A DNA stretch of 64,000 bases. Source: Escherichia coli (GTDB lineage Bacteria > Pseudomonadota > Gammaproteobacteria > Enterobacterales > Enterobacteriaceae). Position 1 is the stretch's first letter. Each line of letters opens with the position of its first letter. Below the pieces are notes generated by a model. That model made no database searches. It had not been told where the DNA came from and worked only from the letters and a program-made list of their open reading frames with translations. Positions 1 through 32,605 of this stretch are shown piece by piece. The translations under genes and the position numbers were made by a program. The DNA lies in assembly GCF_030384885.1 (NCBI RefSeq), contig NZ_CP128613.1; one strand, 5' to 3'.

Positions 1-732
1 TTCTTTCTCTGTCAGTGAGAAATCCCAGATAGCAAAATTTTCTTCGATACGCTGTTGATGTGTCGATTTCGGAATAACGACCACTCCCCGTTGAATATTC
101 CAACGCAGAATGACTTGAGAAATCGATTTTTGATGGGCATCTGCAATACTCTGAAGCAGATTATTTTCAAAGGGTTTATGTCTTCCACCGCCTAACGGAG
201 CCCATGCTTCAGGCTTCACGTTATAATACTTCATGGTTGCCAGCGCCTCTGGTTGGGCAAAATAGGGATGCAACTCGACCTGGTTGACCATCGGTTTAAC
301 TCTTGCCGTTTCACAAAAGTTCGCCAGAACATGAGGATAGAAATTGGAAACCCCAATTGCTTTTAATTTGCCCTCTTCATAGGCATCTTCGAGTGCACGC
401 CACGCACTGAAATAATCGCGCATAGCCTGGTGCAATAAATAGAGGTCGAAGTATTCTAGTCCCGATTTTTTTAATGACGCTTCAATACCTGCTTTTGCCG
501 TATCCTGATTCAACATATCCTGCACCCACAATTTAGACGTTATAAATAACTCATCTCGGGTACATAAACCTTCAGATATAGCTTCACGAACGGCTTCACC
601 GACGGCATCTTCATTACCGTATACCGCTGCAGTGTCGATGAGTCGATAACCCGTGCGGATAGCGTTCAACACTGACTGTTTGCACACGTTTTTATCGGTA
701 ACCTGAAAAACACCAAATCCCATCATCGGCAT
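1..732 (-). CDS. aldo-keto reductase, partial (C-terminal end runs off the window start)
   Basis: Open frame from ATG at 730-732 down to position 1; N-term MPMMGFGVFQ, internal NQVELHP and LEYFDLYLLHQ motifs, C-terminal IEENFAIWDFSLTEKE; absent from ORF track because open at window edge. Confidence 0.7.
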   Translation of the reverse strand, partial: MPMMGFGVFQVTDKNVCKQSVLNAIRTGYRLIDTAAVYGNEDAVGEAVREAISEGLCTRDELFITSKLWVQDMLNQDTAKAGIEASLKKSGLEYFDLYLLHQAMRDYFSAWRALEDAYEEGKLKAIGVSNFYPHVLANFCETARVKPMVNQVELHPYFAQPEALATMKYYNVKPEAWAPLGGGRHKPFENNLLQSIADAHQKSISQVILRWNIQRGVVVIPKSTHQQRIEENFAIWDFSLTEKE

Positions 733-1013
733 TTTCAGATTGTTACTTAATACGGAAAATTCCACTGTCAGTCCCTCCATTAGGCATGAACAATGAGTCT
801 ACGTTAAAACGTAACCTCAAATTAGTATGTGGATTTTGATATCACTTATGCAAAAAATTCATTAATAATGTAGGACTGAAACCTCTCTATTTTCGGGGAC
901 AACGAAGCAGACGCTACCAGTGCTTTTGCCTTCGCCCTTGCTGTTTTTGATACACTTAGGGCCCAGGGCATAACGAAAATGTGCGATATGACAAAGAATT
1001 AACGGAGAATGTG

Positions 1014-1871
1014 ATGATCAGGCAGAAGATTCTACAGCAGCTCCTGGAGTGGATTGAGTGCAATCTTGAGCACCCTATTTCAATCGAAGATATCGCACAG
1101 AAATCTGGCTACAGCAGACGCAACATCCAGCTTCTGTTCCGAAATTTCATGCATGTGCCTTTGGGAGAATACATTCGCAAACGAAGGCTTTGTCGTGCCG
1201 CCATTCTTGTCCGGCTCACCGCGAAATCTATGCTTGATATTGCACTCTCTTTGCATTTTGATTCACAGCAGTCATTCAGCCGCGAATTTAAAAAGTTATT
1301 CGGCTGCTCTCCCCGTGAATACCGCCACCGTGATTATTGGGATCTCGAAAATATCTTCCCTTCTTTTTTAATACGTCAACAGCAAAAGACGGAGTGTAGA
1401 TTAGTCAACTTTCCTGAGACACCTATTTTTGGCAATTCATTTAAATATGATATTGAAGTGTCGAATAAATCACCGGATGAAGAAGTCAAACTGCGACGTC
1501 ATCATTTAGCCAGATGTATGAAGAATTTTAAGACGGATATCTATTTCGTCTCCACGTTCGAACCGTCAACAAAATCGGTCGATTTGCTCACAGTTGAAAC
1601 TTTTGCCGGTACGGTATGCAAACAAACCGATTCAGAGATGTCGAAAGAGTGGACAATTAACCGAGGACTGTATGCCTCTTTCCGCTATGAAGGTGAGTGG
1701 GAGCACTACCCTGAATGGGCGCGAAACCTCTATCTGATGGAATTACCTGCCAGGGGGTTAGCCAGAGTGAACGGCAGTGATATTGAGCGATTTTATTACA
1801 ATGAAGATTTCGTAGAAAAGGATAGCAATGATGTTGTTTGCGAAATATTTATCCCTGTTCGTCCGGTTTAG
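1014..1871 (+). CDS. ykgA: AraC-family transcriptional regulator
   Basis: ORF 981-1871; internal ATG at 1014 preceded by GGAGA; N-terminal AraC-type HTH-like region; neighbourhood next to eaeH. Confidence 0.55.
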   Translation: MIRQKILQQLLEWIECNLEHPISIEDIAQKSGYSRRNIQLLFRNFMHVPLGEYIRKRRLCRAAILVRLTAKSMLDIALSLHFDSQQSFSREFKKLFGCSPREYRHRDYWDLENIFPSFLIRQQQKTECRLVNFPETPIFGNSFKYDIEVSNKSPDEEVKLRRHHLARCMKNFKTDIYFVSTFEPSTKSVDLLTVETFAGTVCKQTDSEMSKEWTINRGLYASFRYEGEWEHYPEWARNLYLMELPARGLARVNGSDIERFYYNEDFVEKDSNDVVCEIFIPVRPV

Positions 1872-1991
1872 TTATCGCTATGTCTAAATGAATTTATAAC
1901 AAGACTACTGTCAGGCAATTCAATAAATAATGGCGTTGAAGATGTCAACGCCATTATTGTTTATTAGAATGTTACTTTCATACTCTTAATA

Positions 1992-4900
1992 TTATTTCAT
2001 CGCCTCCTCGCCCGTTGCCGTATTGGCATCCACCGCGGTAATGGTCACCGTCACTGGCTTCATTTCGTACCCGCCATAGGTCAGGGCGTTAAATGTGAAC
2101 GTATAGACACCAGGCTTGCTGGTACTAAATGTACGCGTGATTTTTCCGCTCACGAAATGGTCATTTTTCGACGGCAGGAACTGATAATCCTTCTCCGTCA
2201 CCCCTTCCGGCGTCTGAATGTCGACCCACATATTCCCGCCAACGGGGTTATTTGCCGACATCAGGGTCACCTCCAGCTTCGCAGTCGATTTCCCATCCGC
2301 CACCAGAGATTGCACATCAGATGATGCGGCGAGCACCGCGTTTTTATCATCCGCCACGAAACTGGATTCAGCCGTTTTCGTTGATACCTGACCGTTGTCC
2401 TGACTCACTTGCGCCGTAAGTGTATATTTCGCTGCAACAGTCGTGGTGGCGGTGAAAATAGCCTGCCCTTGCTCATTCGTTGTCGCTGTGCCATTCGGTT
2501 CCAGGTTTAACGAAGCCGGGCTGGCGGTCAGCGTCACTTCGCTATCTTTCAACAAATTGTTATTGGCATCAGTCACCGTAACTTTATACGTCTGTTTGGC
2601 TTTGCCATCCGCCACTGCACGGTTGCCAATCACCTCAATACTGGAGATGGTCGCCGTAGTCTTATCCGCCACAAACGTAATGCTCTTCGCGTCTGAAGGC
2701 TGGTTATTTCCTGCTGAAGCCGTGATCTCATACGTTCCGGCAGTCACTGAAACCACCTGCAACTCTGCTTTCCCCTCATCGTTGGCTTTCACCCAGACAT
2801 TATCGCCAGTAAGCGGTTTGACACCCCGGGGCAGATTAAATGTCACCAGAGTTCCTGGAACAGGGTTACCGTTTTTATCCTCAACGGTCGCCGTCAGCGT
2901 AAAGGCATCTTTGCCGTTTGCCACTTTTTGAGCGGCAGTGTCAACCTGCAGGTTTGCCTGACCGGTGCTGGCGTCTGCGTTGAATTTCACCGTGACCGTC
3001 TTCTGAGCATTATTCACTGAGGCCGTGATACTGTGTTCCCCAGCAACGGTTGCTATCAACTCAATGTCCGCTTTACCTGCCGCATTGGTTGTTACTGTAT
3101 TCCCCGTCTTGCTAGTCACACCCTGCGGTAAAGTCAGCGTAACTTCTTGCCCCTGCAACGGGTTACCATAGCTGTCCACGACGGTCAGGGTTACCTGGTT
3201 AGCAGACTGTCCATTTGCCAGTTGGTTATTCACCTTCACCGCCATATCACTGATCACTGCCCGGGAAGCGTCGCCTGCAACATTCAGCACCAATGGCTGA
3301 GCAACGGCATTTTGGCCGTTCACGCGTGGCATGACAGACAACTGACCTGCAGCCGATCCCAGCGTTAAGGTCGACACGTAGACCCCATTACCTTTCTCTG
3401 TCCAGTTTCCTGCTGAAGGACGCTCACTCCCCGTGCTGGCGGCACCGCTAAACACTGGTGCATCTGGCTTCAGCCCGGTGACCGGGTTCCCGTACGCATC
3501 CTTCACGGTGAAGGTGAGTTCCGTCGTCGTTTTAACCGTTGGAGTCTTATTGTCCGCAACAAGCGTAGAGTTCGCTGATGACATCTCCCCGGCGATGACC
3601 GTCAACTGCGCGGCTTCGGTGGCTGCTGGCTGGCCGTTGAAGAGCGGCATGACACGAAGCTCGCCCGTCTTTCCGCCTGTGGTCAACGTAGCAACATAGG
3701 AACCGTCACCTTTTTCGGTCCAACTGGAAATAGTCGCCCCTTCAGAGGCGGTCCCCGTCAAACTTGCCGACAACGAAAGACCACTGATAGCGTTGCCATG
3801 CGCATCTTTCGCCACCAGCGTCACGGTTGTGCTTTCGCCTGCTTTTACGCGATCTGCGGCTACAGACACTGTCGACTGGCCTGAAGATAACGCATCAGCC
3901 ACCACGGTTACTTTTGCCGCGTTTGCTGCCGCGTCCTGCCCATTGAGCTTCGGCATAACCTCTAATTCACCCGCCGTAGAGCCGAGAGTAATTTGCGCAG
4001 TCCACGTCCCATCACCATTATTTGTCCAGCCCGATGCCGTAGAACCTACAGCAGCGGCACCCGCTAATGACGGCGCTTCCGGCGTGAGGCTGGTCACAGG
4101 GTTGTCATAGGCATCTTTTGCCGTCCAGATTGCCGTAACTGTACCGCCAACCACCGGTTTATCAGGATTCAGTGTGATGGACGAATGTGCTGCATCAAGC
4201 GGCCCGGCAACAAACTTCAGCGTTTGTTGTAACGTGCCCAGCTGATACTGCTCGCTGAAGGCACGCACAACAACGTTTCCGGCACGGGTCGAAGAAACCG
4301 TGGCGCTGTAAACCCCTGGTTTTATTTCCGAAATGGCACCAACGGTTACACCATTAGTGTCTTGCGGAACAAGTCGCAGGCGGCTGGCTTCTCCCGTCAC
4401 CGGATTACCCTCGGAGTCCACCGCTGTCAGTGTCAGCGTGTAGGCTTGCTGACCATCAGCAACCACATCACCTGACGGCTCGTTAGCGCTCAGGGTGGAG
4501 TTTGCCACATCCATCATCGTGGCCCGCAGTTCTGCAGTGACAGTTTTGCTCATGTCATCAACGCTAACAGTAATCGTTACCTCACCTGACTGCGTTCCGG
4601 TAGTAAAGACAGACTGATACACCCCTGCTTCAGTTTCGGTGAACTCACCCAGTGTGGGTTTTGCCTGTGATTTAGTGGCCTTCAGGGTACGAGTCACAAT
4701 ATTTCCAGCCGGTTTGAAGGTTAGTTCAGTCTTGATCTGATCTTTCATGCCCGTGACTGGCTGGCCCTCGGCGTCGCGCAGAGACAGCACCAGCGGCTTT
4801 TGCTCATTACCGTTAGCAAGCATTTGAATACTGCTCTGACCGTCAAGCGTTAACGCCGTACGATCGGCGCTCATACCAGCTCCGCTAATAACCACTTCTG

Positions 4901-6245
4901 TCTGCACACGTTTCGAGGCATTGCCTTTGTTATCGTAGGCAACTGCTGAAATCGCATAATAATTGTCTTTGCCTGGACGGTAAGCCGGGAGCGTTACTTG
5001 CCACTGACTACCCTGACCGGTAATTTTGCCACCTTCAGCCAGTAATGACGGCGCTTCCCACTGCACATTTTTCAGTCCGTGAGTTGCTTTGCTGACCACA
5101 AGCCCCAGGGAAACCGTCTGACCGCCCTTGCCTTCAATACGCTCAGGCAGAGCAATACGGATCACTTCAGATTTGCGGTACTCAAGAACGATGTTGTTAT
5201 TACGCTCAACCAGGTCATAGCGGCTGCCTGCCAGCATTCGACGCTCGCGAATGCTGTCTGTATCGAGTTGTTTTTGCAGAGGTTCGCCAATTCGGTAGTT
5301 AACTTCCAGGCCAAAGCGAGTGTCATTCTCACCACTCTTGCCCTGCTTATGCCCGGCGCTCAGTGTCAGAAGAGGCACTGGTGTATAGGTTACCTCGGCA
5401 GAAATAGCATGCGGGTCTTTCTGGCGTTTATCTTTACCAAACAGCCCGACTTCATCGCCATAATACTGCTCATACATCAGGCTTGCGCCAAGCTGCGGCC
5501 AGGCAGGTAAATAGCCCTCAGCACGAATATCCCAGCCATTCGCCGGGCGTTCCTGATAATCCTCAACATCCGGTGATTTTTTCCAGCCAGAAGCCCGGAT
5601 ATAACCATTGGCGCTCAGTTTCAAATAATCACGCCAGTATTCCGCACCAACACCAATGCGGGTATGACTACGGGATAAATCATGATCGATAAAAGTATTC
5701 ACCCCCGCCATCCAGTCATTTCCTGAAAAATGACGCCAGCCAAAACCAATATTTGACTGAGTACGATCGTCGGTACGATGTATTGCCCCCTGAGTGAACA
5801 ACATATTTGTCGGCGTGTCATAAATCGGATAAAGCATTTCCAGCGAAGAGTCCTTCAGCGAGAAATTTTTATCGACATTCAGTTTGACGCGCGCAGTACC
5901 ATATTTCCCGAGCCACTCCTGTATTTCCTGGTTAGCTTTAGCTGTGGCCATTCCGGTAATAAAGTTACGTGTCGCATCGCTATCTGGCTGACTGCTTAAA
6001 AATGTCCCGGCATTTGCGGCAAACGATGCGACATTTTTCTCCACATTATTATCAGCAGCTACCGTGGTATTTTCCATGCTCAACCGTGGCTGAACCGCAT
6101 GCTGCGCGCGTGCTGCCATTACTGGGGTAAAGGTGACAGCGAGTGGGAAAAGAACCTGAACAGAGATATTTGCCCACGCCACGCAGCGGGCCAGAACTGA
6201 ATAACGAAATCGTGGTTGTTTATGACCTGTTTTATAACGTGACAT
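1992..6245 (-). CDS. fdeC: intimin/invasin-like adhesin with beta-barrel anchor and tandem Big domains
   Basis: 1417-aa ORF; N-terminal beta-domain then repeated Ig-like modules (TVTLTA.D..GNP.. repeats); matches recollection of FdeC/EaeH. Confidence 0.85.
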   Translation of the reverse strand: MSRYKTGHKQPRFRYSVLARCVAWANISVQVLFPLAVTFTPVMAARAQHAVQPRLSMENTTVAADNNVEKNVASFAANAGTFLSSQPDSDATRNFITGMATAKANQEIQEWLGKYGTARVKLNVDKNFSLKDSSLEMLYPIYDTPTNMLFTQGAIHRTDDRTQSNIGFGWRHFSGNDWMAGVNTFIDHDLSRSHTRIGVGAEYWRDYLKLSANGYIRASGWKKSPDVEDYQERPANGWDIRAEGYLPAWPQLGASLMYEQYYGDEVGLFGKDKRQKDPHAISAEVTYTPVPLLTLSAGHKQGKSGENDTRFGLEVNYRIGEPLQKQLDTDSIRERRMLAGSRYDLVERNNNIVLEYRKSEVIRIALPERIEGKGGQTVSLGLVVSKATHGLKNVQWEAPSLLAEGGKITGQGSQWQVTLPAYRPGKDNYYAISAVAYDNKGNASKRVQTEVVISGAGMSADRTALTLDGQSSIQMLANGNEQKPLVLSLRDAEGQPVTGMKDQIKTELTFKPAGNIVTRTLKATKSQAKPTLGEFTETEAGVYQSVFTTGTQSGEVTITVSVDDMSKTVTAELRATMMDVANSTLSANEPSGDVVADGQQAYTLTLTAVDSEGNPVTGEASRLRLVPQDTNGVTVGAISEIKPGVYSATVSSTRAGNVVVRAFSEQYQLGTLQQTLKFVAGPLDAAHSSITLNPDKPVVGGTVTAIWTAKDAYDNPVTSLTPEAPSLAGAAAVGSTASGWTNNGDGTWTAQITLGSTAGELEVMPKLNGQDAAANAAKVTVVADALSSGQSTVSVAADRVKAGESTTVTLVAKDAHGNAISGLSLSASLTGTASEGATISSWTEKGDGSYVATLTTGGKTGELRVMPLFNGQPAATEAAQLTVIAGEMSSANSTLVADNKTPTVKTTTELTFTVKDAYGNPVTGLKPDAPVFSGAASTGSERPSAGNWTEKGNGVYVSTLTLGSAAGQLSVMPRVNGQNAVAQPLVLNVAGDASRAVISDMAVKVNNQLANGQSANQVTLTVVDSYGNPLQGQEVTLTLPQGVTSKTGNTVTTNAAGKADIELIATVAGEHSITASVNNAQKTVTVKFNADASTGQANLQVDTAAQKVANGKDAFTLTATVEDKNGNPVPGTLVTFNLPRGVKPLTGDNVWVKANDEGKAELQVVSVTAGTYEITASAGNNQPSDAKSITFVADKTTATISSIEVIGNRAVADGKAKQTYKVTVTDANNNLLKDSEVTLTASPASLNLEPNGTATTNEQGQAIFTATTTVAAKYTLTAQVSQDNGQVSTKTAESSFVADDKNAVLAASSDVQSLVADGKSTAKLEVTLMSANNPVGGNMWVDIQTPEGVTEKDYQFLPSKNDHFVSGKITRTFSTSKPGVYTFTFNALTYGGYEMKPVTVTITAVDANTATGEEAMK

Positions 6246-6795
6246 TGAGATAATTTCCTGATGAACGAATTAACGAACATAGGCAAACACAAATAATGGT
6301 GTCTGCTTGTCAGAAAAGCCGGGGATTTCCCGGTTTCCTTTTCCGCAGAAAAGGAAATACCTTTATGTAAGAAAGTACACCGCCACCTAATATATCCAGT
6401 GTCTGTAGCCACTCATCAGGTGGGTGGGCGCGGGATTATATTTTTATTTATGGGTAAAAATTTAGCTTTTTGTGCAAGTCATTAAATAGATACCTAAGTT
6501 ATATTTCTTACTCTGCGGACAGTGAATAATTCATTATTCAGAGTGAATAATAATGACCTGCTTTTAATTTACCACGATTGGAAATACGTCGAAGTAGGTA
6601 TATACGCCAGGATAAACCGATATATTTTTTTTGGATATTCATTTTCCTTCATCGGACTGTAAATTGCGGGGATATCGAACTTGCACGACTCATCGCAACA
6701 CTCAAACAGATTTATGAATTTCGTTCATAACCCCTGACAAATCCTGCCGTCTAATCGAGCTCTTCCCTTTACGTTATGCTTCTCATGAACGATAA

Positions 6796-7386
<591 letters not shown>

Positions 7387-7578
7387 GCGATTATGCATCT
7401 ACCTATTTACGTCGGTCACTCAGTCAGAGTCTTGCCCATATTCAATGAGGTTCAACACCGCAGCCAATGAAAAGTAGGCCATGCGGGGATTAATAGCATT
7501 ACTCATTAACCAATCGCTCTTTTCATTTACGTGCTCTTTATGTAACGTATTGCTTTTATTGATCTTCCTAGAGTTTGC

Positions 7579-7935
7579 ATGAATAAGAATCTCATCCTCG
7601 CATTTGCATTATTTTCCTTACCTGTATTTGCAGAAGAAGATCTGGGGCCAGGCAAATATGTTTGTGACATTAGGATTTCCAGCCTGGATACCGCTACTCA
7701 AATTCTGTCAAAATCCGCAACAGTTCTCGATAATGGAAACAATTTCATCGTTCAAATGCCAAATGGAGATCAATTGTACTCTCCAGATCTGGAAAATGTT
7801 GATGATGGTATAAAACAAAAAGCAACAATAGGTGGAGTGACATTTATTCGTCGTCCAACTTTTAACGATCGCTTCATCGTGGAAGATGGAAATACAGGAT
7901 TCTTCTATAAGATGCGAAACTGCGAGAAGAAATAA
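7579..7935 (+). CDS. hypothetical secreted protein (signal peptide), low-GC islet
   Basis: 118-aa ORF, N-terminal hydrophobic signal-like segment MNKNLILAFALFSLPVFA; AT-rich composition. Confidence 0.45.
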   Translation: MNKNLILAFALFSLPVFAEEDLGPGKYVCDIRISSLDTATQILSKSATVLDNGNNFIVQMPNGDQLYSPDLENVDDGIKQKATIGGVTFIRRPTFNDRFIVEDGNTGFFYKMRNCEKK

Positions 7936-8223
7936 AGGAAGTTTGATAGCGATATCCTCCTGATTTTCAGGCTTTGTACCTGTTCAAGACTTACAACTAC
8001 AAGCCGCTACGTGTTAACGCCTCCCAAAATAACCACCGTTAACCGTAGCGGCCATAGATACTATTATTTTAGCCACATTACTGGTGATAATGATAATTGA
8101 TATTATGGCCGTATAGAAAATAAGTATTAATTATCAGAAAGTTTATTATGTAAACGCGTCCTAATGATTACGTTATTCCTCTTACCGATATTCGCCCAGA
8201 GCAACCATCAATTACACACATCA

Positions 8224-9150
8224 TTAACTTTCTATTTTTACTCTTTTCTCCACCATAAAATCAATAAAAGCACGAACTTTAGAGGGCATTCTCACCCGTG
8301 ATGAAACATAAATATAAAATCCAGGAAATGAAACAGCCCAATCCTCAAGAATCGGCTGTAACTTGCCCGCATTGATATGTTCAGCGATTGCAAAATCCAG
8401 ATGTTGAATGATACCCGTTCCATTCAGCGCCATTCGTATCATGCTTTCGTCATCATTAGAAATATACTTACCTGAAACCTCTATTTCGAACTCTTCATTA
8501 CCCCCCACAACATTAGAAAACTCCCATGCAGAGAGTGCACCGCTACTTTTATGCCGCAACCGAAGGCAATTATGGTTACTCAGTTCCTGAGGCGTTTCAG
8601 GAATACCGTGTTCTTTTAAATAATCTGGCGATGCCACAGTAACCAGTTTAATAAGCGGAGAAACAGGAACGGCAGTCATATGCTCATCCAGTCCTTGCTC
8701 AAGACGTATGCCCACATCACAGCCGTCCGCAATAATGTTAGATAAACCGTCATCCATAATGAGTTCTATCTTTGTTTTGGGGTAACGAGTAAGAAACTCG
8801 CCAATATGAGGCTCAACAAGCATCCGTGCTGCAACACGGGAGGAATTTATTCTCAACAGGCCTGTAGGTTCAAGTTGGGTATCACCAACATCTTTCAAAG
8901 CATCATCAATTTGCCCCAAAGCCGACACCAGCACTTCATACAGACGCTGTCCTTCCTCAGTAAGCGACATATTGCGGGTCGTACGGTATATCAGCTTGGT
9001 GTTAAGACGTTCCTCAAGAGATTTTAAATTCTGGGACAATGCGGCCCGCGTAATACCCATTTCAGAAGCGGCTCTGGAAAAACTGCCGGCACGAACAATC
9101 AGCGCAAACCAGGCAAGAGAAGGCAAAATTGAAGGCTCTATTTTCATCAT
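8224..9150 (-). CDS. LysR-family transcriptional regulator
   Basis: N-terminal HTH (FSRAASEMGITRAALSQNLKSLEERL) from Met at 9150/9147; ORF-track start at 9243 is probably too far upstream; divergent from hydrolase gene. Confidence 0.75.
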   Translation of the reverse strand: MMKIEPSILPSLAWFALIVRAGSFSRAASEMGITRAALSQNLKSLEERLNTKLIYRTTRNMSLTEEGQRLYEVLVSALGQIDDALKDVGDTQLEPTGLLRINSSRVAARMLVEPHIGEFLTRYPKTKIELIMDDGLSNIIADGCDVGIRLEQGLDEHMTAVPVSPLIKLVTVASPDYLKEHGIPETPQELSNHNCLRLRHKSSGALSAWEFSNVVGGNEEFEIEVSGKYISNDDESMIRMALNGTGIIQHLDFAIAEHINAGKLQPILEDWAVSFPGFYIYVSSRVRMPSKVRAFIDFMVEKRVKIES

Positions 9151-22820: not shown

Positions 22821-22851
22821 GGAGAATGTGGTTGACTTAAAAACGAGGAAA

Positions 22852-22913
22852 CTTATTGATTTAAATGGTGCCGATAATAGGAGTCGAACCTACGACCTTC
22901 GCATTACGAATTA
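22852..22913. repeat. left 62-bp direct repeat (att copy; duplicates 3' part of tRNA-Thr plus 16 bp)
   Basis: Identical to 36105-36166 by direct comparison. Confidence 0.8.
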
Positions 22914-23282
22914 TAAGAATCCGTTTCTAATTCAAAGCATTACCACATCAACACTGCGCTCACACGTCCCACCACATCAAAACATGTAAAGCCTTGCAAG
23001 CCATTGTGAGGCCTTATGTGTCTCAGTTTTGTCCCACCTTGTATTACGACTTGCATAACCAATGAAGATAAACGTGACGACAAACGACGCAGCAGTCTTC
23101 TTTTCTTTCACACTTTCCCCACTCAGCATGCATACCTTCTACTATAACTGTAGTGAATGTCTGTTATGAGCGAGGAGCGGACTATCTTTCTGTGCTAAGC
23201 ACAGAAGTTTAAATTAATAAATAGAGATTAAGATGTTTATTGGTTACATTGATATTTATAATTTGATTGCCTTGAAATTCCT

Positions 23283-23322
23283 AAGCCGAATTCATGACGT
23301 CTTCATCACATGAATTCGGCTT
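23283..23322 (-). terminator. hairpin downstream of the 447-aa cargo gene (possible terminator)
   Basis: Perfect 14-bp stem AAGCCGAATTCATG/CATGAATTCGGCTT, 12-nt loop, about 30 nt past the stop codon; no clean U-run. Confidence 0.35.
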
Positions 23323-23351
23323 ATGCATAATACTAAGTTGGTTTTATTAAG

Positions 23352-24695
23352 TCATTTCTTTGCCGCGCTTTTATTGCACTTCTTACAGCCTTCAATCAAT
23401 TTTTCAGTTATTATATAATAATAAGGAATGTAAATGTTTAACCCGCAAGTTTTAATCGAATCGAAAGCAAGAACTTTCACAATGGATTCTTCTCCATCTT
23501 TCTCCATTAGCAATATATCACTTAAAGGCAAATCATTAGGATTGTAAATCCTCACATCGCCAGGCTGTCTTTCATAGGCTTCGATGTCATCACCTGGTTG
23601 GCCATAGGCTAAATGAGTGGCTTTAATCCAGTTTATTGGTTCAGCATTTTGACACCAGGAGATTATTTTTTCTAATTTTTCAGGTGTGTAAGCTTTTACA
23701 TAATCTCCATGTTTTTCACATCTACCTAGTTCTGAAAAATGGCCCAGGGTGTATTCATAAGAATAATCACCAGCAGTCAATGGTAGTCTAAAGTATTGCT
23801 GAGGCAATGCCTTCTGGACTTTGGTTTTACTCAGCAAATTAAAGGTGATATCATAAAGTTGATATAGACAAACACCCTCTCGATCTGGATATCCATAAGG
23901 CTTGATGTCAGAAAGCATCTCAATATCAGAATTATAAACACTTGCATAATCATCACTTCCAAACATGAAAAAACCTTTTGATAGAATGAATATTGCATTA
24001 GGAAGAACGTTTTTTTCAAAATTCTGCGAGTGAGTTTTTATTTCTTGTACTATGTCCATCCAATCCATATCAGTATCATAGGCGAAGATAATTCCAAAAC
24101 CATTAGTCTGAATTCTCTCCTCTGAATGTATAAATATGTTCTGATTTATACCATGTTTCTTTAGTTTTTTGAATGAGCGGATATTTTCGAAAGCACTTTT
24201 CAGTTCTTTTTTTGTTAGTTTTGACTTAACCTGAATCACACCATAGCAGTACTCCACAGGTAAAACCTCAAAAATTTCCTGTCGCTGCATAAGCGAAAAT
24301 GAATTAAAAGCATCATAAAAAAGAATGTCGATTTCATTACTGAGATGTCCTGAGGTTGACGCTACACGGACACTTGATTTTGAGATGGCATAGCTTTGCG
24401 GTAAGAGTTTATTTTCATTGAAAAAGCATCTTAAGAGTTCCTCTCTGACAGTACCAACATCTCTTGGATGCTTAATATCTTTCGATATTTCAAAATCTTG
24501 AAGCATTTTCCTCTGTAAGTGAATGAACTCCCTTTCAAGACCATAAAATTCTTTATCTTTAGATCTCAGTTTGCTTGCACGAGAAACTTGATCGGATATC
24601 CATTCCTTTGTGCGAGACTCTCTCTCAGCAAAATCATCACGTTGTTTTTTTACAGCACCGGTCAAGCGTTTTCTTGTGTTTTCATTATCGGACAT
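23352..24695 (-). CDS. hypothetical protein, low GC; possible PD-(D/E)xK / Mrr-like nuclease fold
   Basis: 447-aa ORF; motif ..SNEIDILFYD..(about 25 aa)..YGVIQVKSKL reminiscent of a D...(E/Q)xK nuclease core; AT-rich relative to neighbours; no confident family assignment. Confidence 0.55.
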   Translation of the reverse strand: MSDNENTRKRLTGAVKKQRDDFAERESRTKEWISDQVSRASKLRSKDKEFYGLEREFIHLQRKMLQDFEISKDIKHPRDVGTVREELLRCFFNENKLLPQSYAISKSSVRVASTSGHLSNEIDILFYDAFNSFSLMQRQEIFEVLPVEYCYGVIQVKSKLTKKELKSAFENIRSFKKLKKHGINQNIFIHSEERIQTNGFGIIFAYDTDMDWMDIVQEIKTHSQNFEKNVLPNAIFILSKGFFMFGSDDYASVYNSDIEMLSDIKPYGYPDREGVCLYQLYDITFNLLSKTKVQKALPQQYFRLPLTAGDYSYEYTLGHFSELGRCEKHGDYVKAYTPEKLEKIISWCQNAEPINWIKATHLAYGQPGDDIEAYERQPGDVRIYNPNDLPLSDILLMEKDGEESIVKVLAFDSIKTCGLNIYIPYYYIITEKLIEGCKKCNKSAAKK

Positions 24696-25214
24696 AAATT
24701 AACCTTAAGTTGATAAGTTTTGTGGTGAATTTATAAAGCCTGAGGGATAAACATTTATAGTCTATAAGTTACTATTTATTTGAGATAGTAAGCCAATTTT
24801 ATTAGATGAAGAAACGTTCATAACCTCCTCAACTACGTTTCAATCGGCAACATCGGAGAAGTACACTTTGACAATATATAGCATATTGAAGCAGCTGTAA
24901 CTTAGAGCGCGTACACTCAAGATTTCCCGCTGCGGTGATGGCGGACGACTGCGTTTGATAACTCATTTCCCTCACCAACTATCGGACCTGTTCCTGATTG
25001 ATTATCACATTATAATGTGAGCAATGTCCGCTCCTAGCACATAGCAGTTCTAGAGACAATGGCGTAAAGTCATGGAGAATCGGTGGGAGGATATTCAGTT
25101 TCATTCATGCCGAAATACGGTAAAATCTATAACAGATAGAAATCATTCAATATTCGCACTATCAGAAGCTGGCCAGCCAACCGCGCACGATTTTGCATAC
25201 GACATGCTACGGTT

Positions 25215-25814
25215 TCATTTATCTCCGACCGGAAACTTCTTATACAGTGTCGATACACCAACATCATAGATGATCTCCACCTTCTGGCGAGGAACGCCTG
25301 ATGCAATTAATCGCCCGGCCTGCGCCCTTTGTTCTGGTGTAAGTTTGGGACGACGTCCACCAATTCGTCCCTGTGCGCGAGCAACTTCCAGTCCAGCTTT
25401 TGTTCGTTCAACAATCAGTTCTCGTTCCATTTCAGCCAGGGCACCCATCACATGAAAGAAAAAACGCCCCATCGGTGTGCTGGTATCAATAGCATCCGTC
25501 AGGCTGCGAAAATTAACGCCACGTTCGCGCAACTCCTCAACCAGAATGACCAGATGGACAAGCGTGCCGGGACCGGGTTTATTCAGCGCTTCAATCAGGC
25601 GATCGCGCTGGTCAAAGCAGTCATCTCCCACCACATAAGCTGTGATGGACGGGCGGAAAGTGACTTTTCCCAGATCTTCGGTATAGGGCTTGTCGCGGTT
25701 CGGGTATTCATGTGTTTCCACACGGCGACCGGTTCCCGCACTTTCTTCTTCAACCTTAAACGGCACACCTCGAAATGACGCATCCTGAAGCCTGTCTTTC
25801 CACGTCATATACAC
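25215..25814 (-). pseudogene. chimeric ORF: C-terminal half of a Pin/Gin/Hin-family serine DNA invertase fused to a Mu-N-like (DNA circularisation protein) N-terminus
   Basis: C-terminal about 110 aa (VEELRERG..FRSLTD.IDTSTPMGRFFFHVMGALAEMERELIVERT..GGRRPKLT..) matches invertase C-terminus and HTH; catalytic Ser-containing N-terminus missing; first about 85 aa (WKDRLQDASFRGVPF..GRRVETHEYPNRD..EDLG) resembles phage DNA_circ_N proteins. Confidence 0.6.
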
Positions 25815-25869
25815 TCCGAAAATAAAAAAGCCACCTATTAGAAGGTGGCCTTGTAATGAATTTTATTAA

Positions 25870-26400
25870 TTAGCGAGTCAGAAACAACGAATCTTTATAC
25901 TTTTGCTGTTGTTCATTTAAATACTTAGCTGTTTCATCGCTGGCAAATGGAAATATTACCGTATTTTTAGGCATGGTAATTTCTTTTTTGTCCAGCGTCA
26001 GAGTAAACATAGGAACATACTGAGCAGAGTAACGCACCGCAGAAACGAGCTCTAGTTTAGACTCTTCAATAACACTTAAATTATCCAGGCTAACTTTCTC
26101 TTCATCTTTTTTCTTTGACGCATTTAAAGTTTTTATTACTTTATTTAATTTCTCCTGAAAATCCTCCTTAAAGTTTTCAGGATTGCCGTCGACAACAAGA
26201 ATCTGTTCACCCTGATTATCTGGAAAAATAATCTTTGCACTTATCAATTTATTTTCTTTATAAACATCACCAAGTTTTATGGCTCCTCCAGATAACTGAA
26301 TAATATGTTCATCTTTAAAGGAGATGTTGCCAGAGATTATGAGAGATGAAAAAATAGCCGCTGCTCCAAGAATTACACTTGCTGTGATATAGCCTTTCAT
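25870..26400 (-). CDS. hypothetical membrane-anchored/secreted protein, low GC
   Basis: 176-aa ORF with N-terminal hydrophobic segment MKGYITASVILGAAAIFSSLIISG; Lys/Glu-rich; AT-rich. Confidence 0.5.
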   Translation of the reverse strand: MKGYITASVILGAAAIFSSLIISGNISFKDEHIIQLSGGAIKLGDVYKENKLISAKIIFPDNQGEQILVVDGNPENFKEDFQEKLNKVIKTLNASKKKDEEKVSLDNLSVIEESKLELVSAVRYSAQYVPMFTLTLDKKEITMPKNTVIFPFASDETAKYLNEQQQKYKDSLFLTR

Positions 26401-26491
26401 TTTTCGCCTATTAACATTTTTCTAAATGTGCATTAATTCTATCACTCTATTTATGACTTACAACCAGCAATACATGTGAGGGGAATCCTGG

Positions 26492-27623
26492 CTACCAAAA
26501 TCGGGTATAGCCAACATCGTGATTTATATCAATGCCACTGGAGCGTGTTTCCGTAACCCGCATACCTGGTGGCATATTTATAAATGATACCTTGATCTCA
26601 CCATCAACTTTTGGCGCGGTAGCTTTATTAATCATGAAGGGATTCGGGCCTGTGGCATCGGAGGCGTTGTTTGCCTGAGCCGGATCCACCGCCGGATAAG
26701 GAGTGTATCCCCGTGCCGGTATTCCCGTCTTCGATATTGTTGAAGGTGGCGCGATCGGTGTTCTGCACCATGTGCAACGGCACCCGGAACAGACGACAGA
26801 TTTCTTCAAGCTGAAACTTGCGGGTTTCCAGGAACTGGCTGTCCTCGGCGTTCAGCGCCATCGACTTCCAGTCCAGCCCCATCTCAAGGATCATCGGGCG
26901 GTGAGCATTACCAAGCCCGGTGTGACGCTCCTCAAAATCTTTCTTCAGGCGCTCATAAGCCTGATCCGACAGCGTCTGTTCTGTACGCAACACACCCGAC
27001 GTCACCGCGCCATTGCTGAACAGTCTGGCCCCGTGCTCTTCGGTCGCAGCTGCCAGCGATATTGCCTCACGGGCATAGGCGATGGGATTCAGTCCCACCA
27101 GACCGTCCAGCGTCAGCGTGCGCACATGCCAGATATCCTCCTGGCTCAGTACATCCGTGGAGCCATCCGGGAATGTGACCTGATAGACCGGCTCCCAGCT
27201 ACTGTTAAGCTTCGGTACCACACAGCCGGGATCGACGGGCAGCAGTTCAGCCACTTCGCCAAATGCTTTCACTTTGTAGGCGTAAAAGTTTCCCCGCAGG
27301 CACAGACAGGTGACCACCAGCTCCCAGAACTCCTGCGGCGTCATATAGCCATTGGGATGCGTGGAGATCAGCTTATGCAGACGTTCGCCAGTGGCTCTCT
27401 GCTTCAGGCTGCCGTTCAGGTGATACAGGTTGCAGGGCAACATCCCGACCGACTCCGCCAGCACCCTGACACAGGAAAAAACCGCCGTCAGTCGCATGGC
27501 CCGCTGGCTGCTGATCTGCTTTCCGGTATAGGTGTCGTAGGACAACCCGATGGCATCCGCCAGCTCTGCTGGCGTGGTCACCGGTGCGTCACTTTTTCGT
27601 TGAAATAATCCCGAAAAGAACAC
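26492..27623 (-). pseudogene. phage portal protein (HK97-family), frameshifted and 3'-truncated
   Basis: 331-aa ORF with portal-like N-terminus continues in another frame as a 105-aa ORF (26492-26809); normally followed by protease/capsid genes, which are absent. Confidence 0.6.
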
Positions 27624-27805
27624 TATTTACCTCCGCCGACAGACAGCTGTGTACGATCGAGATATCGCGCCACCAGCCACGACCAGAACAGGCACAGCGC
27701 CCCGGCAACAACAAAACCCGCCGGGGGATAAATCAGCCAGGCACCATATGCCAGCAAAAGCGCACCCAGCACGCCCACCAGAGGCGCGAGAATCAGCATG
27801 ATCAT
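27623..27805 (-). CDS. small hydrophobic phage protein
   Basis: 60-aa ORF, two hydrophobic stretches, between terminase and portal. Confidence 0.3.
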
Positions 27806-27816
27806 AATTACCTCAG

Positions 27817-29550
27817 TTAAAGCGAGCGGATCCCGTAGGACTCAATGTGGTCAGACAGCGTGTCTTCTTTCTCGTACAGCATGGCTCTGCCAACCGCCAT
27901 AATCAGCGCAACTGCACCATCGATTTTGTTTTCCGCCTGCTCTTTGACGGGTTTCACCACATCATCGTTACCCGGAATGGTTTTGCCGACCACGTTGCCG
28001 ATACACCAGGTCATGATGGGATTGCCGTCATGATGAAAGCGCCCCGATTCAATTGCCGCTTCCAGCTCTTTCATCGGGTCGGACATGTTGGTGTAGTTCT
28101 GAATGATAGTGATGGGGTTCAGGTCTTCATCAGCAAGGTCATGTGACAACCCGGTCGCCCCGAAGGGGTCGATGGGTGACTCACTGACCGGGCTGATTTT
28201 GTTCGCCGCTTTGGCCTCCTCGAGGATGTAGCGATAATCCACCTCCGCACCATCGGTAACGGTCAGAACGCCCATTTCCACCCATTTCTGAAAGCGTTCG
28301 GCTGTCCGTCGATCTTCATTTTTCTCGACGCTGTACACCGTGTCATACGGTACCCAGAAACGCGGGGCCACACTGTAGTAATGCGTTTTACCGTCAATCT
28401 CGCGGGTATAAAGTCGCGCCATGCTGTTCATATCCAGCTTACGCGCCAGGTCAAAGGCCAGAATGCACGGCTGCCCCTCGAACTGCTCAAGAGTCAGTGA
28501 TTTATCCTCGCATCTCTGCCAGCTCACCAGGTTGAAATACGCCGAACGCGCCGACACCCAGATATTGAGGTGTTTTGTTTTAAAGACGTTTGCCAGACGG
28601 GCGTTATTTTTCGCACGTTGCTGCTGGCTTAACAAAAACTCGCGATAAACCGACACACCGATATTCGGGTTAGCTTTTTCAAGTACCTGCGGGTCGGTCC
28701 AGTCGTCGCCTTCGTCAACGGTATAGATGATCCCGAACAGTTCATCGTTGGGCACCGAGCCGTTGAGCATCTCGATGACTTCCCGCCGTTTGTCGTAGCA
28801 CGGCCCCTCAATGTTGTACCCGGCGGTGGTAATGGCCCACATCAGTGGCTGGCGTCGCGCCCCCATCCCGGTAAGCATCGTGGTGTAAAGCGCATCTGTG
28901 GCGTGCTCGTGATATTCATCCACCACCGCACAGTGGGGTGATGAACCATCACCGGGGTTACCGATCAGCGGTTCAAACCGCGCACCATCCTCCGGACGGT
29001 TCATGTTTGAGGCGTTAACCTCAATCCCGAACGCTTCCGTCAGCATGGGTGTGCGTTTACACATCAGTCGTGCCGGACGAAAGACTTCCCATGCCTGTTT
29101 CTCCGTCGTGGCACCGGAATACACTTCCGCGCCGAACTCGTTATCACAGGCAAAACAATACAGGGCGACACCGGCAGAGATTGCCGATTTGCCGTTCTTA
29201 CGGGGGATTTCGGTATACACCTCACGGAAGCGGCGCAGCCGGGAGCCTTTATTGACCCAGCCAAACGCGCAGCAGATCACAAAGAGCTGCCACGGCTCCA
29301 GCGTGATGGGCATCCTCTTAAATGCCCACTCACCCTTGGTGTGCGGCAACAGCTGAATAAATTTCGCGGCCCGTTCAGCCAGGTCCTTGTCGAAGCGGTA
29401 ACGAAACGACTTACTTTTTTCCTCCATCAGGTCATCAAGATGGCGCTGGCAGGCCTGAATCACAAACTGGCAGGCCACAATCTTTCCGTGCACGACATCA
29501 CGGGCATACTGATTGGCAGCATTTACGTTGGGGTAAGATTTCCGGCTCAT
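27817..29550 (-). CDS. phage terminase large subunit
   Basis: 577-aa ORF with ATPase Walker-like region and C-terminal nuclease region; overlaps small-subunit stop (ATGA). Confidence 0.9.
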
Positions 29551-30050
29551 GATTCGATGATTTTCAGAAACGGGTTAGTGGCTTTCTTCTGCCCCGCCAG
29601 GCCAATCAGACGCTGGCGGCTGCTGGGGTCGAGTCCGAGCATTGCCCCCGTACTGCTCATCTCGGACTCCTGTTCTTTTTTGGCGGTCAGCTCCGGATTT
29701 TTGACCATACCGCCCATTGCACCGGTGATGGTGTTGCCCTGTCTGGCAATATTTTTCACGGCACGTCGCCAGAACTCGTAGGCCACGCACCACCGCTCAA
29801 GCACCGCGAGGTCAGTCACGCACAGCAGGCCCTGACCGCAGAGTTCTTTAGTTGTCAGTTGCCACATGATCGTGGCGAGAGGGAGATCTTCTTCAGCGAA
29901 CCACTCCGGTGGCTCAACACCTTTGATGGGCGTAAAAACAGGTTCATCTTTATTCAGGGCTCGCTTGCCGGGGTTTCCGGCCAGCGCCTTGCGCGCCGTT
30001 GGCTTGGGGCGACGCCCGGAACGCCCCGCCGTTCCAGCCATATGCGGCAC
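29547..30050 (-). CDS. phage terminase small subunit (P27-like)
   Basis: 167-aa ORF, basic N-terminus [22 protein letters not shown], immediately upstream of large subunit. Confidence 0.8.
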
Positions 30051-30166
30051 TCCTGGTTAAATTTCATTTTTCGCGGGTATAAAAAAACGATGGGGCGGGC
30101 AGTCCGGAAGACGTCAGGTCACAGGGATTTGACCCGCCCCTCCCCTCTGGCAGTGGGAACTGGTTC

Positions 30167-30517
30167 TTACTTCAGCCGTTCACGGGCCGTCTTCGCCTTA
30201 TGACACGGCCAGCACAAACTCTGCAGATTACTGTCGACATCAGTGCCGCCATGCGATTTAGGGATGATGTGGTCAACGGTCTTCGCCTCACGCACCACAC
30301 CAGCACGCAGACATAACTGACACAGGCCTTTGTCACGCTTCAGGACACGCGCGCGGATACTGTCCCACTTCGAACCGTAGCCGCGCTGATGACGGGATTG
30401 TCCAGGTTTGTATTGCTTCCAGCCTTCGCTTTTGTGGCTTTCGCAGTAGCCTGAAGGGTCCGTGGTTGTAAAGCGGCAGCCGCGAACACGGCAGGCTTTT
30501 GGGGTTCGTGGGGGCAT
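30167..30517 (-). CDS. HNH endonuclease (phage packaging-associated)
   Basis: 116-aa ORF with CxxC...HIIPKSHGG..D..NLQSLCWPCH HNH motif. Confidence 0.85.
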   Translation of the reverse strand: MPPRTPKACRVRGCRFTTTDPSGYCESHKSEGWKQYKPGQSRHQRGYGSKWDSIRARVLKRDKGLCQLCLRAGVVREAKTVDHIIPKSHGGTDVDSNLQSLCWPCHKAKTARERLK

Positions 30518-31041
30518 ATGTACTCCAATGAAGAAACCAGCGAAATAGCTGCCTTCATTCGTAGTAAACCTTTTTCATCAACGCAGTAATGGATTCTTTG
30601 AAGAGTCGCGATCAATACAACTCACTAATGGAGAGACTTGTCTCACGCATGAGACAAATTTCCCGTTTGATTTAATGGACACTATAGAGGGACAGAATGC
30701 CTTCCTCACTCGAATCACATCAATTAAGGAGGTTCAACATGTTTCATTCCACAAGTCATCAGGCTGTAATTATGGCAGCATCAGTTTGTGCCAAAGACCT
30801 TTTCCGCTTCACTTTGAGCCTGATTCATTTCTACCTGACCGGCTCGCCTCTATCTTTTTAATCCCCGCTTTATCCAAATTGCATTGCCATAATGCCGACA
30901 ACACACTGACATTCAAATCCAGACTACCTCCAATAGTCTGACCGTACACCTATATAGTTTTAATTTTCATCAATCCATTTAACTATCGTTTAATTGTTGT
31001 CACATAGGATTCTGCCGTTTTTAACAATGCAGGATAATAAG

Positions 31042-31335
31042 ATGAAAAAAATGTTGTTTTCTGCCGCTCTGGCAATGCTTATTACAGGATGTGCTCAACA
31101 GACGTTTACTGTTGGAAACAAACCGACAGCAGTAACACCAAAAGAAACCATCACCCATCATTTCTTCGTTTCGGGAATTGGACAGGAGAAAACTGTTGAT
31201 GCAGCCAAAATTTGTGGCGGCGCAGAAAATGTTGTTAAAACAGAAACCCAGCAAACATTCGTAAATGGATTGCTCGGTTTTATTACTTTAGGCATTTATA
31301 CTCCGCTGGAAGCGCGTGTGTATTGCTCACAATAA
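31042..31335 (+). CDS. bor: Bor/Iss-family outer-membrane lipoprotein
   Basis: 97 aa from internal Met; lipobox LITGC; closely matches recollection of lambda Bor. Confidence 0.9.
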   Translation: MKKMLFSAALAMLITGCAQQTFTVGNKPTAVTPKETITHHFFVSGIGQEKTVDAAKICGGAENVVKTETQQTFVNGLLGFITLGIYTPLEARVYCSQ

Positions 31336-31366
31336 TTGCATGAGTTGCCCATCGATATGGGCAGCT

Positions 31367-31828
31367 CTATCTGCACTGCTCATTAATATACTTCTGGGTT
31401 CCTTCCAGTTGTTTTTGCATCGTGATCAGCCTCTCTCTGAGGGTGAAATAATCCCGTTCAGCGGTGTCTGCCAGTCGGGGGGAGGCTGCATTATCCACGC
31501 CGGAGGCGGTGGTGGCTTCACGCACTGACTGACAGACTGCTTTGATGTGCAACCGACGACGACCAGCGGCAACATCATCACGCAGAGCATCATTTTCAGC
31601 TTTCGCATCAGCTAACTCCTTCGTGTATTTTGCATCGAGCGCAGCAACATCACGCTGACGCATCTGCATGTCAGTAATTGCCACGTTCGCCAGCTTCAGT
31701 TCTCTGGCATTTTTGTCGCGCTGGGCTTTGTATGTAATGGCGTTATCACGGTAATGATTAACCGCCCATGACAGACAGACGATGATGCAGATAACCAGAG
31801 CGGAGATAATCGCGGTTAATCTGTTCAT
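31367..31828 (-). CDS. Rz: i-spanin Rz
   Basis: 153-aa ORF, N-terminal TM, coiled-coil; closely matches recollection of lambda Rz. Confidence 0.9.
31426..31608 (-). CDS. Rz1: o-spanin Rz1 (embedded in +1 frame of Rz)
   Basis: 60-aa ORF with lipobox VVGC and proline-rich PPPPP segment, fully inside Rz. Confidence 0.8.
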
Positions 31829-32301
31829 ACCTCAATCTCTCTGACCGTTCCGCCCGCTTCTTTGAATTTTGCAATCAGGCTGTCAGCCTTATGCTCGAAC
31901 TGACCATAACCAGCGCCCGGCAGTGAAGCCCAGATATTGCTGCAACGGTCGATAGCCTGACGAATATCACCGCGATCAATCATCGGTAAAGCGCCACGCT
32001 CTTTAATCTGCTGCAATGCCACTGCGTCCTGGCTTTTGGGGGAGAAGTCTTTCAGGCCAAGCTGCTTACGATAGGAATCCCACCAACGGGAAAGAAGCTG
32101 GTAGCGCCCGGCTGCTGTTGATTTGAGTTTTGGGTTTAGCGTGACAAGTTTGCGAGGGTGATCGGAGTAATCAGTAAATAGCTCTCCGCCTACAATGACG
32201 TCATAACCATGATTTCTGGTTTTCTGCCGTCCGTTATCCGTTCCTTCTGACCATGCCACCATATCGAGGAAAGCTTTACGCTGAGGATTAAGATTTTGCA
32301 T
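31825..32301 (-). CDS. R: endolysin, lambda R-type lytic transglycosylase
   Basis: 158-aa ORF closely matching recollection of lambda R (..[31 protein letters not shown]..). Confidence 0.9.
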
Positions 32302-32605
32302 TTTTCACCCCTGTCAGTCGTTCCCAGAAGTACGTCAGTGCAACCGAACCCATCGCACCACTAATCCCCGCTGTCGCGAGAATCATGTAAATACTGAATC
32401 CACTTTCGATGCTGATCAGGCCACCAATAACACCGGTGAATCCTGATACCACTATCTGAGCCAGAGCATTTATCCAACTCCACGTTGCTTTACTCTGCTT
32501 CACATCTATCAGGTAGCGGACTAGACCGCCCCAACCTGCGATGATCAGCAAAACGAGCCAGAACGCTCCGGCAAGGCTCTCTTTTTCGTGCATATGAATA
32601 GCCAA
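32288..32605 (-). CDS. putative holin
   Basis: 105-aa ORF with hydrophobic helices, overlapping start of endolysin; not lambda S-like. Confidence 0.55.
   Translation of the reverse strand: MAIHMHEKESLAGAFWLVLLIIAGWGGLVRYLIDVKQSKATWSWINALAQIVVSGFTGVIGGLISIESGFSIYMILATAGISGAMGSVALTYFWERLTGVKNAKS

Follow-up and report, generated by a model that had tools for sequence, protein, structure and literature searches.

The window analyzed here, a stretch of 64,000 nucleotides from Escherichia coli (contig NZ_CP128613.1), carries a long frame resembling an intimin-like adhesin gene, which raises the question of whether this is an intact and maintained fdeC (eaeH), a different member of the same family, or a gene that is open but silent. 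Our analysis makes it close to certain that the locus is an intact, selectively maintained fdeC (eaeH) allele, encoding an Escherichia adhesin of the FdeC type, an inverse autotransporter (type Ve secretion). Both the gene and its exact protein are already known, as an ordinary and characterized E. coli surface adhesin.

The reading frame, its neighbours and its distribution

According to the ORF listing and its translation, a single ATG-to-stop frame occupies positions 1992..6245 and comprises 1417 codons plus a stop, the terminal stop being the only one; the uninterrupted 1417-codon frame of the initial annotation is thus confirmed, with the addition of the strand, which it had left out and which is minus. 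The ATG at 6245-6243 is the furthest-upstream in-frame start after a stop, and agrees with both the RefSeq start and that of FdeC from strain IHE3034 (MSRYKT...). This is not a chance ORF, since it stays open for 4.25 kb, gives full-length family matches (IAT_beta, E=7e-109) and shows a dN/dS of about 0.2. The gene and its surroundings are as follows:

1992..6245, minus strand: fdeC (eaeH) coding sequence, from the ORF, its translation, DNA identity and the alignment to IHE3034
1014..1871, plus strand: convergent neighbour, a Rob/AraC-family regulator (intact ykgA homologue)
1926..1958, no strand: 14-bp perfect hairpin between the convergent stops of fdeC (1992) and the ykgA-like gene (1871)
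6811..7371, plus strand: divergent neighbour, an aldo/keto reductase pseudogene without its C-terminus

The DNA matches, at 100% identity, the fdeC annotated in E. coli 2013C-4282 (NZ_CP027579.1), labeled in RefSeq as "fdeC: inverse autotransporter adhesin FdeC"; this name, together with near-identity of residues 595-1008 to the crystallized FdeC fragment (PDB 4E9L, E=5e-245), upholds the assignment to eaeH/fdeC that had been made initially. The closest characterized system is FdeC of the ExPEC strain IHE3034 (ECOK1_0290; Nesta et al. 2012; PDB 4E9L), equivalent to EaeH of ETEC H10407, which shares the locus, the length class (1416 vs 1417 aa) and the domain order. Alignment with FdeC, which had been suggested as a check, revealed no internal deletions relative to IHE3034: amino acid identity is 92% end to end over 1415 columns, and the only gap is a single residue, an additional one in the window protein near aa 1310. 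Five other FdeC alleles are 1416-1418 aa long and 92-98% identical to the window protein, the published range for orthologues being >91% (PMC3324786). Identity, chromosomal position, the 4E9L match and the lack of both LysM and a C-terminal C-type lectin all place the protein in the FdeC/EaeH group.

The position in the chromosome is conserved, with the ykgA-like regulator/rcl on one side and ykgR-ykgMO-ecp on the other, and the neighbours are those found in NZ_CP027579.1 (ykgA-like regulator, aldo/keto reductase, ykgR, ykgMO and the ecp operon). The hairpin at 1926..1958 is likely a bidirectional terminator. Upstream of fdeC, the intergenic region of 565 bp is unchanged in layout and 95% identical to that of IHE3034; beyond the divergent reductase the locus is rearranged, the window having a truncated reductase and a hypothetical gene where IHE3034 has a LysR regulator and two reductases. 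The comparison with 2013C-4282 aligned ~35.6 kb of window positions 1-48761 with 2 mismatches and one small indel; the two are close over this compared part, but a prophage remnant and a Flag-2 rearrangement set them apart.

The gene is indeed disrupted in K-12, as stated initially: there eaeH (b0297) survives as an N-terminal pseudogene of 888 bp adjoining IS3A, as Nesta 2012 also states (PMC3324786), and the stub is 98% identical in amino acids to residues 1-292 of the window protein. It retains the promoter, the leader and the first 292 codons and has nothing past codon 292, IS3A standing in place of the remainder of the gene and of the end of ykgA, so that the latter is truncated in K-12 by the same IS3 event. 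The intact fdeC marks the window as DNA of an E. coli other than K-12. As to the usefulness of the gene as a strain marker, also proposed initially, this holds for the exact allele, which is informative on lineage (one complete genome; 590 public contigs, where the protein is already named FdeC), whereas the intact frame as such only excludes K-12-type strains, since 4585 of the 5426 complete E. coli genomes have a near-full-length fdeC. A genome-wide orthologue scan found a true orthologue (identity of at least 90%) in only three non-redundant Escherichia species representatives; all other matches were paralogous barrels with identities of 61% or less.

Protein architecture and export

The protein has the layout of type Ve secretion, that is, a signal peptide (by inspection and hydropathy) followed by a PF11924 barrel and a C-terminal passenger of the Ig superfamily:

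6105..6245, minus strand: signal peptide region, ~aa 1-47, by inspection and hydropathy rather than a dedicated predictor
5175..6020, minus strand: inverse-autotransporter beta-barrel and linker, aa 76-357 (Pfam PF11924, 4E1T, 4E1S)
1995..5174, minus strand: passenger of ten tandem Ig-like (Big_1 / Invasin_D3) domains, aa 358-1404, and a short acidic tail
3222..4463, minus strand: equivalent of the crystallized FdeC region B, aa 595-1008 (PDB 4E9L, near identity)

The signal peptide region displays a basic N-region, a hydrophobic core (aa 17-43) and a cleavage-type motif MAARA. The PF11924 (IAT_beta) match spans model positions 3-279 of 279 with 364 bits against a cut-off of 22.3, and the barrel structures of invasin and intimin (4E1T, 4E1S) align to aa 113-357. 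Only ~30 residues separate signal peptide and barrel, leaving no room for a LysM domain; no Pfam match to LysM or lectin domains was obtained at E<=0.01 across the protein, in agreement with the absence of LysM and lectin cap described for FdeC (PMC3324786, PMC6714894). In the passenger, Pfam matched nine Invasin_D3 and five Big_1 stretches, the intimin D00-D0 structure (6tqd) aligned to aa 358-466, and a self-built HMM recovered nine repeats across aa 458-1395. An AF2 model of the last 228 aa displays two all-beta Ig domains (pLDDT 86), whose best matches are Big domains of intimin, InvE, invasin and InvD.

While this anatomy was established on the sequence itself, the export mechanism is borrowed from family work. 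A Sec signal peptide would bring FdeC to the periplasm, where the N-terminal 12-stranded barrel (aa 76-357) would insert in the outer membrane with the assistance of BAM and TAM; for FdeC of CFT073, insertion was shown to depend on BAM/TAM and the passenger to be exported as a hairpin (PMC4943183). The C-terminal passenger would then be threaded outward through the barrel to give a rod of ten Ig-like domains, its tip being an Ig domain where intimin or invasin have a lectin-like receptor head.

Allelic variation, function and alternative readings

The similarity to IHE3034 FdeC is uneven along the protein: the barrel and Ig2-Ig3 are 96-100% identical, whereas Ig4 and Ig7-Ig10 are only 78-88% identical with dS of up to 0.75, and hence belong to a different allelic lineage. 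Across domains dS spans 0.02-0.75, a spread that marks the allele as a recombinant mosaic. Per-domain dN/dS, calculated for the four comparisons with enough substitutions (IHE3034, MB51, O157 and O26), was below 1 in every domain, and the overall values of 0.13-0.22 indicate that fdeC is under purifying selection. The outer domains Ig7-Ig10 are the most divergent, as would be expected of an exposed antigen, and the distal domains differ in 10-25% of their amino acids from alleles with measured binding.

The function and regulation of FdeC have been described for other alleles (PMC3324786, PMC4943183, PMC6714894, PMC11143625). In published work the rod attaches to epithelial cells and to collagens I, III, V and VI, promotes biofilm formation and helps in colonization of the bladder and kidney; expression is normally silenced by H-NS and is induced by host-cell contact, 39-42 C and alkaline pH. 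In APEC, deletion of fdeC raised rather than lowered in vitro adhesion (PMC11143625), which makes the role as a colonization factor dependent on context. By analogy with these alleles, and with the same dependence on context, the window allele is a potential colonization factor, so that the initial suggestion to this effect is consistent with the literature.

A different inverse autotransporter (intimin Eae, YeeJ, IatC/IatD or invasin) would share the beta-barrel and Ig domains common to all of these proteins, and sub-threshold NCBIfam matches were indeed obtained to the IatC, Ilp, intimin and SinH models. The scores fall far under the curated cut-offs (649 vs 2400 bits for IatC, 385 vs 1400 for intimin_all), other inverse-autotransporter barrels in the genome scan are at most 61% identical, and synteny together with 92-100% identity links the gene to fdeC; we therefore consider a different family member to have a negligible probability. 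Intimin itself was rejected on its score and on the absence of its hallmarks, LysM and the C-type lectin head, and of any LEE or tir context. The homologous barrel (E=1e-71 to 1e-83 vs 4E1S and 4E1T), type Ve secretion and the Big-domain rod are shared with intimin and Yersinia invasin, but FdeC lacks LysM and the C-type-lectin receptor head, has ten extracellular domains instead of four or five, has no Tir/LEE partner and, according to the literature, recognizes a different ligand (collagen).

Granted that the gene is fdeC, it could still be cryptic in this strain, permanently silenced or decaying behind its open frame and taking no share in colonization. Such a reading could appeal to the report that H-NS represses FdeC, whose expression in vitro goes undetected in standard conditions (Easton 2014, cited in both PMC11143625 and PMC4943183), to the AT-rich region upstream of the gene (41-44% GC) and to a ribosome-binding site predicted to be paired at every temperature modeled. 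Decay is at odds with the dN/dS values and with 4.25 kb free of stops and frameshifts; moreover, promoter and leader are intact and conserved to an unusual degree, 590 contigs still carry exactly this protein, and other alleles have been documented to be induced by host contact and temperature. A cryptic gene thus seems improbable, and an intact, selectively maintained fdeC is the reading we retain.

A conserved, putative leader upstream of fdeC

Upstream of the start codon lies a region that carries no annotation:

6246..6434, minus strand: conserved 5' region of ~189 nt, from a perfect TATAAT (6440-6435) to the start codon
6319..6358, minus strand: two adjoining leader hairpins, by fold prediction

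The whole region is predicted to fold strongly. Constraint is strong in its proximal 130 nt (6246-6375), which are far more conserved than neighbouring silent sites: compared with the most distant orthologue (E69), positions -1 to -130 have 9 differences in 130, vs 48 in 155 four-fold sites of the adjacent coding sequence (Fisher p=1.6e-7). The first predicted hairpin is UUUCCUUUUC-UGCG-GAAAAGGAAA; the second, CCGGG-AAAUC-CCCGG followed by a U-run, is terminator-like, and the U-run CUUUUCUGA (6310-6318) is predicted to base-pair with UCAGGAAAU, the Shine-Dalgarno region at 6254-6262. In an alignment of the proximal leader 36 of 43 pairs are invariant and one is compensatory; the covariation count does not stand out from shuffles, 170 of 500 of which scored at least as high, and the RNAalifold covariation term is ~0.

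An Rfam scan of window positions 1-9000 gave no matches at E<=1, from which we take the leader not to be a described RNA family; a covariance model of the proximal leader found no match outside the window among 75 other inverse-autotransporter loci (878 kb including the window), and so supplied no distant homologues for the covariation count, and a literature search on eaeH and sRNA returned nothing relevant. The TATAAT at 6440-6435 is conserved; a sigma-70 promoter scan upstream of fdeC found no canonical -35/-10 pair and no full match at this motif, and a conserved upstream TTGCAC was discarded as a -35 element, being too distant from the TATAAT (31 nt). Two simpler roles for the leader were also discarded. 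AGGAA has a predicted unpaired probability of 0.12-0.15 at 25-50 C, with no melting of the kind expected from a simple RNA thermometer (FourU/ROSE type), and the only short ATG frame, a putative leader peptide MSGYRHWIY, has no ATG in E69.

Tentatively, and with more doubt than conviction, we propose that the ~130-190 nt leader (6246-6434, minus strand) might represent a cis-regulatory RNA specific to Escherichia and so far undescribed, with two hairpins, a terminator-like stem and a U-run over the Shine-Dalgarno, carried on a transcript driven from the TATAAT. Such a leader could gate FdeC after transcription start, either by ending transcription prematurely or by keeping the ribosome off its binding site. 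If true, this gating would help to account for the restriction of FdeC to host contact, alkaline pH or temperatures from 39 C upward. To our knowledge, the published explanation of this pattern has so far been H-NS silencing alone.

FdeC is a broadly conserved vaccine candidate, to which the gene itself adds little new, although the exposed distal domains of this mosaic allele differ from those of the alleles used in vaccine studies. Poor in vitro expression has hampered the study of this antigen and, if the leader is regulatory, it would add a further, post-initiation level of control to it.

Identity and integrity of the adhesin gene

The initial annotation placed a full-length eaeH/fdeC gene of 1417 codons in the window, and both its coordinates and its length were borne out by the ORF list; the strand, which it left unstated, is minus. 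The translation contains 0 internal stops, and G+C content rises from ~41-44% in the flanks to 51-56% within the frame. The gene sits in the usual fdeC surroundings:

1992-6245, minus strand: fdeC open reading frame, 1417 aa, ATG start
Convergent neighbour of fdeC: Rob/AraC-type regulator, ykgA homologue
Other flank of fdeC: divergent aldo/keto reductase, ykgR, ykgM/O and the ecp operon
1926-1958, between the convergent stop codons downstream of fdeC: perfect 14-bp hairpin, probably a bidirectional terminator

At 6811-7935 the divergent reductase survives as a pseudogene lacking its C-terminus, with a 118-aa hypothetical gene after it; O157:H7 shares this layout and has an extra IS1203, whereas IHE3034, the ExPEC strain of the characterised FdeC, carries a LysR regulator and a pair of intact reductases in their place.

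In Pfam searches the inverse-autotransporter beta-barrel was complete (PF11924, aa 76-350, E=7e-109) and was accompanied by nine Invasin_D3 and five Big_1 stretches, with neither a LysM nor a lectin domain found. When compared with PDB sequences, aa 595-1008 were nearly identical to the crystallised FdeC fragment 4E9L (E=5e-245), the barrel matched those of invasin and intimin (4E1T and 4E1S), and residues 358-466 matched intimin D00-D0. The NCBIfam models for intimin, IatC, Ilp, SinH and YchO were rejected, matching through the common barrel alone and far under their cut-offs (intimin_all, 385 vs 1400). By megablast fdeC was found in 5078 of 5426 complete E. coli genomes, every match being annotated 'fdeC: inverse autotransporter adhesin FdeC', and the exact protein is present under the name FdeC on 590 contigs in public collections.

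Alignment with the FdeC of IHE3034, which Nesta et al. 2012 characterised (PMC3324786) and which is encoded at the same syntenic position, showed no internal deletions (92% over 1415 columns, one 1-residue gap). In length, five further alleles (1416-1418 aa) depart from the window protein only by the same single-residue indel and two C-terminal residues. The claim that eaeH is disrupted in K-12 also held: b0297 is an 888-bp pseudogene ending at IS3A, in agreement with PMC3324786, sharing 292 residues with the window FdeC at 98% identity, and ykgA is cut short there by the same event. The window gene is thus an intact copy of an already known adhesin gene, a correct but ordinary finding.

Anatomy and variation of FdeC

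The anatomy described here comes from the present analysis and the mechanism from the literature. The N-terminus combines a basic N-region with a hydrophobic core (aa 17-43) and a MAARA motif; by inspection and hydropathy it was read as a signal peptide, and it is followed by:

aa 76-357: barrel and linker
aa 358-457: D00-like Ig domain

A self-built HMM detected nine tandem repeats between aa 458 and 1395, which together with the D00-like domain make ten Ig-like domains, the number published for FdeC (PMC4943183). Modelled with AlphaFold2 (mean pLDDT 86), the last 228 residues take the form of two all-beta sandwiches, which in the PDB match best to intimin D0-D1 and D00-D0, InvE, invasin and InvD; the tip is therefore an Ig domain and not a lectin head. 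The FdeC orthologue of E69, labelled 'E. coli E69' and belonging to a divergent Escherichia lineage (L011:6001-10884, CP089930.1), has 1627 aa vs 1415-1418 aa in E. coli alleles, an excess of about 210 residues or roughly two Ig domains, so that the number of rod domains varies within the genus.

FdeC is exported by Sec, with barrel insertion and passenger export aided by BAM/TAM (PMC4943183); its rod adheres both to epithelial cells and to collagens I, III, V and VI, and helps colonisation in a mouse urinary-tract model (PMC3324786). Expression is condition-dependent and triggered by host contact; it depends on H-NS, temperature (at least 39 C) and pH, according to Easton 2014 as cited in PMC11143625 and PMC4943183. 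In avian pathogenic E. coli (APEC), fdeC is induced at 42 C, and its deletion increases motility and in vitro adhesion (PMC11143625).

Overall dN/dS against five alleles was 0.13-0.22, values that indicate a functional gene held under purifying selection. Within a single allele pair, the per-domain dS covers a very wide range: in the comparison with IHE3034 it is 0.02 in Ig2-Ig3, 0.49 in Ig8 and 0.75 in Ig10, and in that with the near relative N96 it is ~0 in most domains and 0.25 in Ig4. This spread is the mark of recombination within the gene between old allelic lineages, mostly in the distal exposed domains, where amino-acid identity falls to 73-88%. Extensive diversity has also been published, two genome sets having yielded 125 and 630 variants (PMC11143625).

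Marker value and genomic surroundings

As for the proposed use of the full-length gene as a strain marker, at least 80% of fdeC was covered at one place in 4585/5426 complete genomes (84.5%), and published prevalence is similar (67-99%, by strain set; PMC3324786, PMC6714894); intactness therefore discriminates poorly. In the same survey the K-12 family, F' plasmids included, showed only an 876-bp stub. The allele discriminates strains better: a single complete genome, strain 2013C-4282 (NZ_CP027579.1), matched at 100%, the second-best match was 98.3% and the majority lay at 90-95%.

The window strain is nevertheless distinct from 2013C-4282. Positions 1-22911 are identical except for two mismatches; beyond 22911 the window has an extra 13.2 kb by tRNA-Thr and another configuration of Flag-2 (lateral flagella). 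The 13.2-kb insertion by thrW (22912-36104), absent from the otherwise near-identical 2013C-4282, is flanked by a 62-bp duplication (22850-22911, again from 36105 onward), and is a prophage remnant, given that it best matches late genes of lambdoid prophages (antiterminator Q, lysis, terminase small and large subunits, portal). The Flag-2 genes at 48560-60000 (FlgL, FlgK, FlgI, FlgG, FlgE and FlgD homologues) directly follow an ORF retaining just the C-terminal ~58-67 residues of LafU, whereas 2013C-4282 and K-12 have a lafU/flhA deletion scar at this site; the window strain has therefore undergone a different, partial Flag-2 deletion. The adjoining segment, 60293-63923, encodes a weak, under cut-off homologue of the FliB-like flagellin lysine-methylase together with an 823-aa protein whose N-terminal domain is glycosyltransferase-like, and may be a flagellin-modification module.

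The conserved 5' region, a putative leader

The leader (6246-6434) lies between the fdeC ATG and this element:

6440-6435, minus strand: perfect TATAAT

The 565-bp upstream intergenic region is intact and collinear with IHE3034, O157 and K-12, and is untouched by the differences on the reductase side; K-12 keeps 6246-6440 despite its stub gene. In 5032 of 5038 E. coli records, identity over the 200 nt preceding the ATG is 95-99%, above that of the coding sequence, and this stretch carries no annotation. Among the species-representative genomes scanned, a true orthologue was present in just three, all of them Escherichia:

Escherichia sp. E1V33; E. whittamii; the divergent 'E. coli E69' lineage

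In E69, the most distant, 9/130 sites differ from the window at -1 to -130 vs 48/155 four-fold degenerate sites of the adjacent barrel (Fisher p=1.6e-7), i.e. ~4.5 times less divergence than at nearby silent sites, which places the proximal leader under strong constraint. At -131 to -189, 20/59 sites differ, and sequence far upstream is unalignable. A primer containing 'CTATTTAATGACTTGCACAAAAAG' served to amplify the APEC reporter in which temperature induction was reproduced (PMC11143625). In our alignment this sequence is the conserved block ~245 nt ahead of the ATG, so the control elements are contained in that stretch plus the gene.

Downstream of the TATAAT the predicted fold reaches -63.5 kcal/mol (z=-4.6), with a long 5' hairpin, a 10-bp hairpin, a terminator-like CCGGG/CCCGG stem followed by a U-run, and a fourth hairpin; CUUUUCUGA is predicted to pair with the Shine-Dalgarno region UCAGGAAAU, covering the ribosome-binding site. 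In the proximal-leader alignment 36/43 predicted pairs are invariant and one, in the fourth hairpin, is compensatory (G-C, G-U, A-U), while pair-covariation counts were not above shuffles. The leader had no Rfam match, and no homologue of it was found near other inverse-autotransporter genes. A simple RNA thermometer is unsupported, the Shine-Dalgarno being paired throughout 25 to 50 C in the predictions. Just upstream of it, at 6262-6282 (minus strand), lies the tandem motif TTCGTTAATTCGTTCA, two TTCGTT units 8 nt apart, invariant in 9/9 Escherichia sequences compared, which could be a regulator binding site rather than an RNA feature. The leader may be either an RNA or a DNA element; constrained and structured, it is the sole lead here that merits a bench test.
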